DNA from: an uncultured Candidatus Saccharibacteria bacterium
Lineage (GTDB): Bacteria > Patescibacteriota > Minisyncoccia > Phycocordibacterales > DSPV01
Assembly (NCBI GenBank): GCA_964574355.1
Contig: CAZNMD010000005.1
Location: 1 to 51,360, forward strand
Direction of reading: 5' to 3'
DNA: 51,360 bases
In this document: piece by piece, positions 19,093-23,080 of the stretch
Numbering within the stretch: the stretch's first letter is position 1
Layout of the letters: the number at the start of each line of letters is the position of its first letter
Notes under the pieces: model-generated
What the model was told of the DNA's origin: nothing
The model's input: the letters and a program-made list of their open reading frames with translations, nothing else
Databases searched by the model: none
Made by a program: the position numbers and the translations under genes

Positions 19093-19143
19093 ATGTGTTA
19101 TATCGTTACACCAATAGTAACAACAAATGGTACAATCGGACAA

Positions 19144-20004
19144 ATGACTAACGCGAATATACGCGTGTTAGAGAAGAAACATTGGCCGCCACAATTGACG
19201 GAAATTCCTGAGGTACCAAAAAAACTCTTTATTCGTGGCCAAACCCCCGACTGGAGTCGAATACTCCTTGCTGTTGTTGGGGCAAGAAAAAATACCAGCT
19301 ACGGAAAAGATGCATGCGAAACATTAATCGCCGGACTTTCCGGTTCACCTATTACTATTGTTTCCGGACTTGCACTTGGCATTGATGCGATAGCACATAG
19401 AGCGGCACTTAACGCCCGACTTCCAACCATAGCTATTCCCGGATCAGGACTTTCAAAGACTGTTCTTTATCCTAGAAGTAATCACGGGCTCGCCGAAAAA
19501 ATAGTTGAATCTGGAGGAGCACTCATTTCTGAATTTGAACCAGAATTTCGAGCAACCGTATGGAGCTTCCCCCAAAGAAATAGAATTATGGCGGGAATGT
19601 CACGCGCCGTACTTGTTATTGAGGCAGAGAAAAAATCAGGAACACTCATCACCGCTCGCCTTGCAACCGAATACAATCGCGACGTATTAACCGTGCCTGG
19701 TTCATTATTTTCACCCACCTCAGAGGGACCCCATCTTTTGCTTCGGCTTGGAGCAACACCGATCGCATCATCCAACGACATTCTAGATGCACTTAATTTA
19801 AAACAAGAGGATAAAAAAGAAAAAGATTATAGCGATTGTTCACCAGACGAAATAAAAATCTTAGAACTTTTAGCTGAACCGAAATCAAGAGACGCCCTCA
19901 TTCAACAATTAAACAAAACCGCTTCTGAATTAAACGCCCTCCTTTCAATTATGGAAATAAAAGGTTTGATTAAAGAATCACTTGGTGAAATTCATCGAGT
20001 ATAA
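19144..20004 (+). CDS. dprA: DNA-processing protein DprA
   Basis: AVVGAR, VSGLALGIDAIAH, FPQRNRIMAG, SGTLITA and a C-terminal winged helix. Confidence 0.96.
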   Translation: MTNANIRVLEKKHWPPQLTEIPEVPKKLFIRGQTPDWSRILLAVVGARKNTSYGKDACETLIAGLSGSPITIVSGLALGIDAIAHRAALNARLPTIAIPGSGLSKTVLYPRSNHGLAEKIVESGGALISEFEPEFRATVWSFPQRNRIMAGMSRAVLVIEAEKKSGTLITARLATEYNRDVLTVPGSLFSPTSEGPHLLLRLGATPIASSNDILDALNLKQEDKKEKDYSDCSPDEIKILELLAEPKSRDALIQQLNKTASELNALLSIMEIKGLIKESLGEIHRV

Positions 20005-20008
20005 AAAG

Positions 20009-20036
20009 TTGATTTATTACGGATACGTTATACAAT
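20009..20036 (+). promoter_or_regulatory. promoter of RNA cassette 1
   Basis: TTGATT-N16-TACAAT. Confidence 0.65.
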
Positions 20037-20042
20037 CGCAAT

Positions 20043-20244
20043 TAGAGTGACAGAGCGATTCCTGGAATTAAGTCTCCTGCTCCATTTCGGGACAGCTTCG
20101 ATATCTTCTCGATTTCGGGCTTTAGACCATTTCTAGGTGAACGTTCGAGTGCAATACTTGAATACCGGTTCAATCCGGCGCTACTCTGCCGCACGATGTA
20201 TTATCTTTAGCTTTCTGGCCAAAGATTGCACCGTGCGGTTTTTT
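20043..20244 (+). ncRNA. unknown structured RNA 1 (dprA-topA array)
   Basis: Nested stems, a GCAA-loop hairpin, a CCGG-TTCAAT-CCGG hairpin and a terminal CCGCACG/CGTGCGG stem with T6. Confidence 0.65.
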
Positions 20245-20245
20245 C

Positions 20246-20273
20246 TTGACAAAAAAACCTAAGTATGTATAAT
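20246..20273 (+). promoter_or_regulatory. promoter of RNA cassette 2
   Basis: Consensus TTGACA-N16-TATAAT. Confidence 0.85.
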
Positions 20274-20279
20274 ACTCTC

Positions 20280-20510
20280 CAGAGTCTGCAAAGGAAGCCT
20301 TTGGCTGAAAGAGGTTCGGCGGAGAATCCCCGGCATACGTTTGACCGGTTTTACGTCTACGAAGCAGACAAGGGTCCGTCCTGTGATTCCAGAGATGATC
20401 GCCTTGCCGACAGTGGCAATTCTAAACACTGAGTATCAGACCATTCCGATACGGGTGGGAAGACGTCCCCATAACGACCGGTCGATGCGCCACATCGTCC
20501 GGTTCTTTTT
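20280..20510 (+). ncRNA. unknown structured RNA 2 (dprA-topA array)
   Basis: GTCTGC/GCAGAC closing stem, TTGCC/GGCAA hairpin, terminator GACCGG..CCGGTT plus T5; no ORF on the transcribed strand. Confidence 0.65.
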
Positions 20511-20516
20511 ATTTTA

Positions 20517-20544
20517 TTGACTTCATTTTCAATCCAGTTATGAT
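20517..20544 (+). promoter_or_regulatory. promoter of RNA cassette 3
   Basis: TTGACT-N16-TATGAT. Confidence 0.75.
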
Positions 20545-20550
20545 TCTTCC

Positions 20551-20803
20551 CGGAGGTAACAACCAACACCTGGCGAGGCTCCCTTCGTGAATTGGGGGTG
20601 ATTAGGTTCAAATCCTAAAGTTGGGGTGAGCACTTTATATAGGGAAAGCATAAAACAGGTACTTGAAAGTACATAGGTGGGAGACATCGAACCACGGGCT
20701 TCGGCATGTGGGGAGTCGCAGAATGTAAAACCACCCGCCTTTTTATAGAGTGCAAGCTTGCTCCACTGTCGCATGGATACTCCGGTATTCATGCGACTTT
20801 TTT
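20551..20803 (+). ncRNA. unknown structured RNA 3: tRNA-like domain plus 23S L1-stalk-like domain
   Basis: TTAGG-TTCAAAT-CCTAA T-arm; ATAGGTGGGAGAC...GGAGTC...ACCACCC; terminator GTCGCATGGATAC/GTATTCATGCGAC plus T6. Confidence 0.75.
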
Positions 20804-20905
20804 ATTTTCTTCCTCATACCCTTCATTTGTATCCTTCGTCTTAAAAATCTTTTCCCCAATTTGGCACTTTAAAAAATGCATGCTATTAATTAGCGCGATA
20901 CGTCC

Positions 20906-23080
20906 ATGAAATTACTTATTGTCGAGTCACCAGCAAAAGCAAAGACCATCGAAAAATATCTCGATGGGAAATTTACCGTACGCGCATCTGTTGGTCACGT
21001 GCGAGATCTCCCAAAATCAAATAAAAAAGCAGTTGATATTGAAAACGGTTTTAAGCCTCATTACGAAATTGCCAAGGGAAAAGAAAAAGTTGTTGATGAG
21101 TTAAAAAAATTGGCCAACAAAGCGGATGAAGTAATCCTTGCAACCGACCCTGATCGTGAAGGCGAAGCGATTGCCTGGCACATTGCTGAAGTAACTGACT
21201 TGAAAAAACCAAAGCGAATTGTCTTTCACGAAATTACTAAAGACGCTGTAAACGAAGCACTGCTTCATCCGCGCCTCATTGATACTCACCTTCGAAAAGC
21301 ACAAGAGGCCCGACGTGTATTAGACCGCCTCGTTGGTTACGACCTTTCAGGAATTATCTGGAAAAAAGTTCGCTACGGACTTTCTGCCGGCCGCGTACAA
21401 TCACCAGCACTTCGCATTATTATGGAGCGTGAGCGAGAAATTCGCGCTTTCAAAAGTGAAACCTATTGGGTTATCAAAGCCGATACGAAAACAAACACTG
21501 GCGACCCTATTCCTTTTATCTCCTCAGTTGAACCAAAAGAAGAAGCTGAGACAAAACGCATAGTTGAAACCGCAAAAAAAGCTGACTGGATCATTGCTTC
21601 TATCGAAGAGGCTGAAGCGAAGCGAAGCCCCCGCCCTCCTTTTATCACCTCAACACTTCAGCAGGCTGCTTCATCGCGCCTTGGACTTCCACCTTCACGT
21701 ACGATGGGTCTTGCTCAGCGTCTCTACGAAGCTGGCCTCATCACTTATATGCGCACCGATAGTACGAACCTATCAGCCGTTGCTCATACCCAGATCAAAG
21801 CGGCCATAGAACATTCTTTCGGCAAAGAACTTTACCAAGAACATACGTACACAAAGAAGAGTAAAAATGCTCAGGAAGCTCACGAGGCAATCCGCCCAAC
21901 CAACTTTTCAATTGAATCAGCCGGAAGTGATGAAGCACAAAAACGTCTCTATAAACTTATCTGGCAAAGAACAGTTGCCTCACAAATGAAAGATGCTCGT
22001 GTTTCGCGAACAAGAATTACCGCAAATGTTGCCAAAGGTGCCGTTCCAGATTTCAACGCCGATGGAACACGCGTGATTTTCCCCGGCTGGCTTTTGGCAG
22101 ACACCGGTGCTCGAGGTGAGGATGTTGAACTACCAAAAGTAAAAGAGGGTGACAAACTTACTGTTATTGATGTAACAAGCGAAGAAAAACACACCCAGCC
22201 ACCACCACACTACAGTGAAGCAGGACTCGTTAAGGAACTGGAAAAACGCGGCATCGGCAGACCTTCAACCTACGCGTCTATCATTAAAACACTCGTCGAC
22301 CGAGGATATGTGACAAAAGAGCAACGGGCACTCATTCCAACCGACACCGGTGATGTTGTTTCAAGTTTCCTTGAAAATAATTTTGCTGAATATATTAGTG
22401 ACGGATTTACCGCCTCTATGGAAGACGACCTTGACCAAATTGCATCAGGCGAAAAAGAGTACGAGAAAACACTTTCGGCTTTTTACAAACCCTTTCTCAA
22501 AGACATTAAATCAAAAGAGAAGCTGGCAAAAGCTACCAACTTAGGCGACGCGGATCCATCAATGAAGTGTCCGGTCTGTGGCAGTAGCATGATTATCAAA
22601 CTCGGCAAATCGGGAAAGTTTCTCTCATGCGACAAATTTCCAACCTGTGTTGGAGCTCGCATGATGAATGGCGACCCTATCGAAGGACCAAAAGAGACCG
22701 GTGAACTCTGCCCTGACTGTGGCAATAAACTTGTTGAGCGTATGGGACGTTTCGGAAAATTTATTTCCTGCAGTACCTATCCAAAATGCAAGTTCATCAA
22801 AAAAGATCCTGAGCAAGAAGCAAAAGAAAAAACTGGTGTGAAATGCCCCATGTGTGGCACCGGTGAGATTGTCCAAAAAGGTGGACGCTTTGGACCATTC
22901 TTTGCTTGCAACAATTATCCGAAGTGTAACTTCACCATGAAAGCGAAACCAACCGGTCGTGTCTGTGGCGAATGTGGTTCCCTCATGATGGAAGGTACAA
23001 AAACAATCCCTGAACGCTGTTCAAATAAAACTTGTATACGACATAAACCTGCTAAAAAAACCCCGGAAGAAACTAAGTAA
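20906..23080 (+). CDS. topA: DNA topoisomerase I
   Basis: IVESPAKA, ATDPDREGE, SAGRVQ, ITYMRTD (catalytic Tyr) and C-terminal C4 zinc ribbons. Confidence 0.98.
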   Translation: MKLLIVESPAKAKTIEKYLDGKFTVRASVGHVRDLPKSNKKAVDIENGFKPHYEIAKGKEKVVDELKKLANKADEVILATDPDREGEAIAWHIAEVTDLKKPKRIVFHEITKDAVNEALLHPRLIDTHLRKAQEARRVLDRLVGYDLSGIIWKKVRYGLSAGRVQSPALRIIMEREREIRAFKSETYWVIKADTKTNTGDPIPFISSVEPKEEAETKRIVETAKKADWIIASIEEAEAKRSPRPPFITSTLQQAASSRLGLPPSRTMGLAQRLYEAGLITYMRTDSTNLSAVAHTQIKAAIEHSFGKELYQEHTYTKKSKNAQEAHEAIRPTNFSIESAGSDEAQKRLYKLIWQRTVASQMKDARVSRTRITANVAKGAVPDFNADGTRVIFPGWLLADTGARGEDVELPKVKEGDKLTVIDVTSEEKHTQPPPHYSEAGLVKELEKRGIGRPSTYASIIKTLVDRGYVTKEQRALIPTDTGDVVSSFLENNFAEYISDGFTASMEDDLDQIASGEKEYEKTLSAFYKPFLKDIKSKEKLAKATNLGDADPSMKCPVCGSSMIIKLGKSGKFLSCDKFPTCVGARMMNGDPIEGPKETGELCPDCGNKLVERMGRFGKFISCSTYPKCKFIKKDPEQEAKEKTGVKCPMCGTGEIVQKGGRFGPFFACNNYPKCNFTMKAKPTGRVCGECGSLMMEGTKTIPERCSNKTCIRHKPAKKTPEETK

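Follow-up and report, generated by a model that had tools for sequence, protein, structure and literature searches.

We describe a small RNA, RNA 3, which carries a free-standing look-alike of the L1 stalk of 23S rRNA (the top of H76, H77 and H78) linked to a tRNA-like arm, and which very probably is a gene belonging to an RNA family of CPR (Patescibacteria) bacteria. The family is assembled from known modules and matches no family in Rfam 15. RNA 3 is encoded in the window, i.e. the whole stretch of DNA analysed here (51,360 nucleotides), which is contig C5 of the host genome (G000). The host is an ultra-small (CPR) bacterium whose genome of 778 kb is 99.8% complete in 26 contigs.

RNA 3 lies in a 901-bp gap devoid of credible open reading frames, between dprA (19093-20004, whose product is a DprA-type sequence) and topA (20906-23080). 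Consensus-like promoters were found in this gap at 20009-20036, at 20246-20273 (12/12 matches) and at 20517-20544 (10/12), and two terminator-like hairpins with U tracts, besides the terminator of RNA 3, were recognized by eye near 20190-20245 and 20478-20510. With these promoters and terminators the gap reads as three tandem small-RNA units, and the L1-like element as the 3' half of the third. In G001, the sole other genome of the same genus, the dprA-topA spacing is only 117 bp and the RNA is absent; about 800 bp of the gap are thus specific to the host species. The features of the unit are the following:

20517-20544, + strand: promoter-like site of RNA 3 (TTGACT, 16 nt, TATGAT; 10/12 consensus matches), with the RNA start inferred near 20551
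20551-20805, + strand: whole RNA 3 transcription unit, about 255 nt, its ends deduced from promoter and terminator
20552-20555 with 20761-20764, + strand: P1, GGAG paired with CUCC, from the fold
20556-20562, + strand: single-stranded junction GUAACAA, overlapping the shared motif UAACAAC (20557-20563)
20563-20624, + strand: domain A, a tRNA-like cloverleaf with a four-way junction in the fold
20563-20567 with 20620-20624, + strand: acceptor-like stem of domain A, CCAAC paired with GUUGG
20569-20578, + strand: D-like hairpin of domain A, with the GG-containing loop GGCG
20579-20598, + strand: anticodon-like hairpin of domain A
20602-20618, + strand: canonical T-arm of domain A (UUAGG, loop UUCAAAU, CCUAA)
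20625-20757, + strand: long arm after domain A, with the L1 look-alike as its tip
20630-20753, + strand: domain B as first delimited, a long stem (20630-20643 with 20738-20753) bearing the L1-like head
20659-20672, + strand: small extra hairpin (GUACU UGAA AGUAC) directly 5' of the head, present in folds and absent from 23S rRNA
20665-20748, + strand: L1-stalk look-alike (H76 top, H77, H78), matched by covariance model R1 (42.2 bits, E 2.5e-10)
20676-20680 with 20731-20735, + strand: H77 of the look-alike, GGUGG paired with CCACC
20683-20685 with 20715-20717, + strand: H78 base of the look-alike, GAC paired with GUC
20692-20699 with 20704-20711, + strand: H78 stem of the look-alike, closed by a UUCG loop
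20768-20805, + strand: intrinsic terminator, a 13-pair stem (20768-20797 in the scan) followed by a U tract

The fold of RNA 3 has a z-score of -3.2, and no paralogue was found within the host genome. The first unit, RNA 1 (20009-20245), has a promoter-like site (TTGATT, 16 nt, TACAAT), extends over about 200 nt and closes with a long hairpin that resembles a terminator and is followed by a U tract. Near 20166-20179 lies a hairpin similar to a T-arm (CCGG, loop UUCAAU, CCGG), and the fetched loci contained no homologue of RNA 1. The second, RNA 2 (20246-20512), follows a perfect TTGACA, 16 nt, TATAAT promoter, is about 230 nt long and ends in a terminator-like hairpin. It folds no better than its shuffles (z-score -1.0), yielded neither an Rfam match nor a match to the family model R2 described below, and had no homologue among the fetched loci; on the missing R2 match and the z-score, the idea that RNA 2 is a second L1-like element was rejected.

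A first reading of the window, made from the sequence only, had taken domain B for a free-standing mimic of the L1 stalk with flanks that are not rRNA. Its quoted strings and coordinates were correct throughout when the window was re-read. The stem GCACTTTATATAGG (20630-20643) pairs with CCTTTTTATAGAGTGC (20738-20753) and is present in the minimum-free-energy folds, and the head spans from G20669 to ACCACCC (20730-20736). The flanks are indeed not ribosomal, since dprA and topA enclose the element and the 23S gene lies on another contig, C11. An assembly chimera with rRNA is ruled out as contigs from different studies are identical across the element: the public-run contig X1 is identical to the window over 19700-20470, 20494-20928 and 20904-21300, and contig X7, from an independent run of a different study, over 20620-20864. 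A further run, X8, is labelled RNA, is probably DNA and covers only 20091-20366.

Reference stalks were taken from the 23S genes of 31 other genomes and from the host's own (32 loci). A loose motif matched 17 of the 32, and after removal of one duplicate the 16 distinct L1 stalks, in which H76, H77 and H78 had been confirmed by covariation, were built into model R1; with the 15 motif-less loci left out, R1 describes canonical stalks. R1 recognizes the window at 20665-20748 with 42.2 bits (E 2.5e-10 in 72 kb, E 2.6e-9 per genome), and the L1-stalk observation in the window holds. Alignment to rRNA models, which the sequence-only reading had proposed as a check, gave a divided answer: the model of real 23S stalks is significant, while the full LSU model of Rfam does not report the window element (E ≤ 10 over the locus). 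That LSU model does match a homologue in genome G064, with 48.5 bits at model positions 2127-2214.

The head of the window copy reads GUACAUAGG and UGUAAAACC and fits neither of the loop consensus patterns, YAGNAURR for loop A and UGNRAYAY for loop B. Loop A is matched by 14/16 real stalks and 14/22 family members, loop B by 16/16 and 19/22, and three members, the window copy among them, match neither; the elbow-binding face of the window copy may therefore be altered. The AAAACC variant of its loop B recurs in locus L155. Its R1 score is the lowest among the clear family members (42 bits vs 48-80).

Domain A is tRNA-like, not a tRNA: neither ARAGORN nor the Rfam tRNA and tmRNA models called a tRNA or tmRNA at the locus. 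Its connection with the L1 mimic, also proposed in the first reading, is supported. P1 co-varies in homologues from the same family, being GGAG:CUCC in the window copy and L156 and UGGGU:ACCCA in L155, and the T-stem shows double changes at 5/5 pairs in the family alignment, with 96% of cells paired. The junction motif UAACAAC is common to the window copy, L155, L156 and L157, and a looser RAAC follows P1 in other members. A hairpin also occurs in L010 at the place equivalent to the extra hairpin of the window copy.

The common plan of the family consists of a closing helix, a T-arm or tRNA-like arm, the H76-H78 look-alike and a terminator. About 25 homologous loci were inspected in CPR genomes and metagenomes, three of which are doubtful. 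A blastn search of RNA 3 against 60 relatives gave zero matches. A pattern of T-loop, H77 5' word and H77 3' word found one true homologue among four matches in a species collection (L010, a Saccharibacteria MAG), the other three being tRNA genes paired by chance with scattered words; the pattern was very strict and is uninformative on absence outside CPR, and the model scans covered CPR genomes. A looser pattern returned 11 loci in metagenomes, at least seven of which show the family architecture (L013, equal to L020, L015, L019, L021, L022 and L023). Another, L016, is doubtful; L014 (equal to L018) was discarded as real rRNA and L017 as a chance match. The homologue in G064 surfaced as a stray LSU match, and R1 gave extra non-rRNA matches across 151 genomes of the host's order. 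Two patterns searched in viral contigs yielded zero matches.

Model R2 was built from 17 family sequences. It matches the window at 20599-20749 with 89.9 bits, a score that is partly so by construction as the window is one of the 17. Across the phylum, R2 detected members in 3/150 genomes (G064, G075 and G242), and other low matches in this sample were rejected as 23S or tRNA. Members were detected in two of 14 further genomes from the taxonomic family of the host (G003 and G013), and the order sample included ten clear carriers out of 150 (G128, G192, G208, G116, G026, G032, G017, G125, G179 and G015) and two doubtful candidates (G165 and G169). The higher carriage in the order than phylum-wide, 10/150 vs 3/150, is only a hint, the genomes being kin and not independent. 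Presence of the RNA varies even within the host genus.

The T-arm of the window copy fits the spacing by which family members are recognized, 45-80 nt upstream of the head on the same strand. Several homologues came from patterns or a model that require a T-loop; models of the head alone retrieved 12 free-standing heads, and a T-arm hairpin was present within 120 nt upstream in ten of them, the exceptions being L095 and L100. In an alignment of 22 sequences, 94.4% of cells are paired and double changes occur at 18/21 pairs, a level reached by 0/500 shuffles and compared with 45-56% in slid controls; because the alignment had been fitted to the model, the figures are biased in its favour. The same helices emerged from an independent run of MAFFT and RNAalifold. 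A hairpin with a U tract follows within 220 nt downstream on the same strand at 20/22 family loci, compared to 9/22 in the antisense control.

Searching 17 family loci against Rfam 15 (E ≤ 0.1) revealed no matching family, only neighbouring tmRNA, tRNA and weak noise, and nothing relevant was found over the window gap at the gathering threshold or at E ≤ 10. We found no description of such an RNA in the literature, a term search of PMC5737381 included; supplementary lists of RNA motifs could bear on its novelty. The neighbouring genes vary by locus (topA, malic enzyme, a response regulator and others) and none is conserved, though some same-strand downstream genes are related to translation (rplJ, HPF, rpmF-nusB and an RNase R-like gene). 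dprA adjoins the family RNA in two distant CPR genomes only, in the window, where the RNA is downstream, and in L010, where the two are divergent; this may be chance.

Three functions had been suggested for the mimic from its sequence: a uL1 sponge, a trans-acting L1-stalk piece, and a clamp for tRNA elbows, which would dock either the RNA's own tRNA-like arm or cellular tRNAs. Only the clamp survives, and we put it forward tentatively, as having a little under an even chance. Both loop regions are kept in most members and a T-arm lies alongside, and on these grounds an elbow clamp with its ligand in cis is proposed. In T-loop elbow binders, according to a review (PMC4810234), two interdigitated T-loops form a flat face that stacks on the tRNA elbow. 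The head would use this RNA-only activity of the L1 stalk: its own two interdigitated T-loops would offer a flat face, the face would stack on a tRNA-type elbow, and the nearest such elbow would be that of the RNA's tRNA-like arm. With the elbow in cis, the RNA would reproduce all by itself the contact in which the E-site tRNA is held by the L1 stalk. Such a contact may be intramolecular, may link two copies, or may be given up in favour of cellular tRNAs. In the fold of the window copy the arms look unequal, about 10 bp to the elbow vs more than 20 bp to the head, which argues against simple docking within one molecule. Action via uL1 would be impossible in the host organism. Candidate roles of the clamp include sequestering or chaperoning tRNAs, acting as a decoy towards a factor that recognizes the surface of L1 stalk and tRNA, and forming an RNA-only assembly.

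A wider proposal is that the family represents a fourth natural setting of the interdigitated T-loop elbow clamp, namely a free, RNA-only, uL1-independent CPR small RNA that would capture or chaperone tRNAs or a factor, or build RNA-only dimers or larger assemblies by reciprocal head-to-elbow contacts. This we regard as possible, if rather unlikely.

Other explanations of the same architecture were considered. The tRNA-like arm could be only a processing signal, cleaved by RNase P or RNase Z to release either a separate L1-like RNA or a small tRNA-like one. Such a cassette would fit the stacking of the acceptor-like stem on the T-arm and the single-stranded leader UAACAAC just 5' of it, and RNase P RNA exists in the host genome. 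However, the two ends of the RNA are held together as one unit by the co-varying P1, and the acceptor-plus-T stack measures about 10 to 14 bp depending on the family member; we hold the processing cassette to be improbable. As to the identity of the RNA itself, RNase P and tmRNA were both rejected. No RNase P match was found at the locus, the only one in the host being at C4:47975-48304. The arm of one member gave a weak tmRNA match (14 bits, E 0.039), and in G026 a true tmRNA gene adjoins the family RNA and is separate from it.

There is likewise only a small chance that the window copy is a decaying relic of the family that no longer works in its host. Its R1 score, its two off-consensus head loops and the patchy presence of the RNA within the genus point in this direction, but promoter and terminator are intact, as are all helices, the loop-B variant is shared with L155, and runs from several studies contain an identical sequence.

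A role as decoy or regulator, in which the RNA would bind uL1 via the H77-H78 junction and buffer or sense the free protein, appears quite improbable. In its favour, the family keeps the GGGAG...GUC junction that 23S rRNA shares with uL1-regulated mRNAs, as described in PMC10931766, and the three carriers found outside the host's order have uL1. Yet the Ribosomal_L1 domain (PF00687) was found in 0/61 genomes, i.e. neither in G000 nor in its 60 relatives, with 14/14 controls positive, in an order where 10/150 genomes carry the RNA. The uL1 sponge is therefore untenable in the host genome. This count agrees with the uL1-less subgroup of Parcubacteria reported in PMC9297842. A correlation with loss of rplA, also raised in the first reading, is not strict: uL1 is missing from the host and its 60 sampled relatives, but is encoded by all three carriers from outside the uL1-less order. 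In these three, rplA is on another contig or about 500 kb from the RNA, which also speaks against the decoy. The family thus lives with and without the protein. It also retains both T-loop regions, which, to our knowledge, uL1-binding mRNA sites lack.

Genes near rplJ-rplL were inspected as well, as rplA often sits directly upstream of this pair. The host rplJ-rplL genes are on C11, away from RNA 3, and are directly preceded by an ORF of 220 aa (L144:607-1269) that had no Pfam match and no significant PDB sequence match (best E 0.22); as a candidate for a cryptic uL1 it was dismissed, not being uL1-like by sequence. A replacement of rplA by the RNA, in the interval from rplK to rplJ, was rejected as well: in L013 the RNA is upstream of rplJ, but the ORF preceding it is without a Pfam match.

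Even less probable is that the RNA supplies a canonical L1 head in trans to ribosomes whose own stalk has diverged. What favours this is that the 23S stalk of the host lacks the GGTGGGAG and ACCACCC words that the free RNA keeps. However, no segment that could anchor the RNA to 23S rRNA was seen, and the host 23S does have its own H76-H78, with 55.9 bits in R1 despite the missing words. All carriers in which a 23S L1 stalk was found have one of their own (G026, G032, G116 and G169 gave no 23S match), so that the RNA is not a replacement part. Scores of the carriers' stalks range from 56 to 82 bits, about 82 bits in G128 and G208, and no link of carriage to a degraded ribosomal stalk was seen. 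The 23S L1 stalks of the uL1-less order score up to 87 bits and are near-canonical, which indicates that the head RNA is under selection from something other than uL1.

Some peculiarities of the 23S genes were noted along the way. The host stalk (L001:3979-4068, or G000:C11:13018-13107) has lost the canonical H77 words and has altered loop letters that are otherwise invariant in 16/16 references, with a similar variant in G052 (L102) and G014 (L154). The host 23S gene (G000:C11:10540-14408) is 3869 nt long, compared with a model of 2925 positions, and has an insertion of about 270 nt shortly after the L1 stalk region. One 23S gene has, besides its true L1 stalk, a second L1-stalk-like element (L090, G159:C10:34150-34250; 49.4 bits in R1) located about 1.1 kb further upstream, apparently within an insertion. 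CPR RNAs may reuse L1-head modules in other places as well. In the 23S loci L134, L136, L137 and L140, from other CPR genomes, H78 is cut to a few bases (GGGAGCC-UUCG-GGC), matching the helix-78 gap in some CPR lineages that PMC9297842 reports.

Least probable of all, and by our estimate highly improbable, is a cis-regulatory leader, T-box-like or of the ribosomal-protein kind, of the downstream gene: same-strand genes do follow at several loci, some of them the translation-related ones listed above, but neighbours change between loci, the terminator is clear of P1 wherever P1 is clear, same-genus G001 has topA without the RNA, and there is no T-box match in Rfam at the locus (E ≤ 10), where the downstream gene is topA.

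Mimicry of rRNA has been described for short sites in mRNA leaders to which proteins bind. In this family an entire functional rRNA domain, its tRNA-gripping head included, forms a gene of its own. The domain is fused to a tRNA mimic, and the gene is maintained in lineages that have lost the protein partner of the domain. If the head grips an elbow, the family would be a compact natural model of the contact between the L1 stalk and tRNA, would add a new class to the RNAs that recognize tRNA, and would open a way into the translation biology of uL1-less Parcubacteria. That more T-loop elbow binders would be found was foreseen in the 2016 review of tRNA-elbow recognition (PMC4810234).

Among known systems, the L1 stalk of 23S rRNA itself shares with the family the order of the blocks, the pairings of H77 and H78 and the two loop regions, and R1 gives the family 48-80 bits. 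Unlike the stalk, RNA 3 is located outside rRNA with its own promoter and terminator, has one more hairpin on the 5' side of the head, includes a covalently attached tRNA-like arm, and, in the window copy, departs from loop letters that are otherwise near-invariant.

The tRNA-like domain of tmRNA also combines an acceptor-like stem with a T-arm, and the anticodon arm is reduced or absent in some members of our family. Bacterial Y RNA-like RNAs have a tRNA-like domain with an acceptor-like stem and T-arm as well. In RNA 3, a free CCA end and a tag frame are absent.

The sites in rplK/rplA mRNA leaders resemble RNA 3 in that they mimic the uL1 site of 23S rRNA; according to PMC10931766, they are in the 5' UTR of rplK/rplA and need uL1, whereas RNA 3 has its own gene, flanked by dprA and topA, and its host lacks uL1.

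The distal end of T-box Stem I and the J11/12-J12/13 module of RNase P bear comparison with the proposed clamp, as they place a flat face of two T-loops on the tRNA elbow (PMC4810234), an arrangement presumed for RNA 3. These are convergent motifs in other contexts, whereas RNA 3 has a homologue of the ribosomal motif, joined in cis to a tRNA-like arm.
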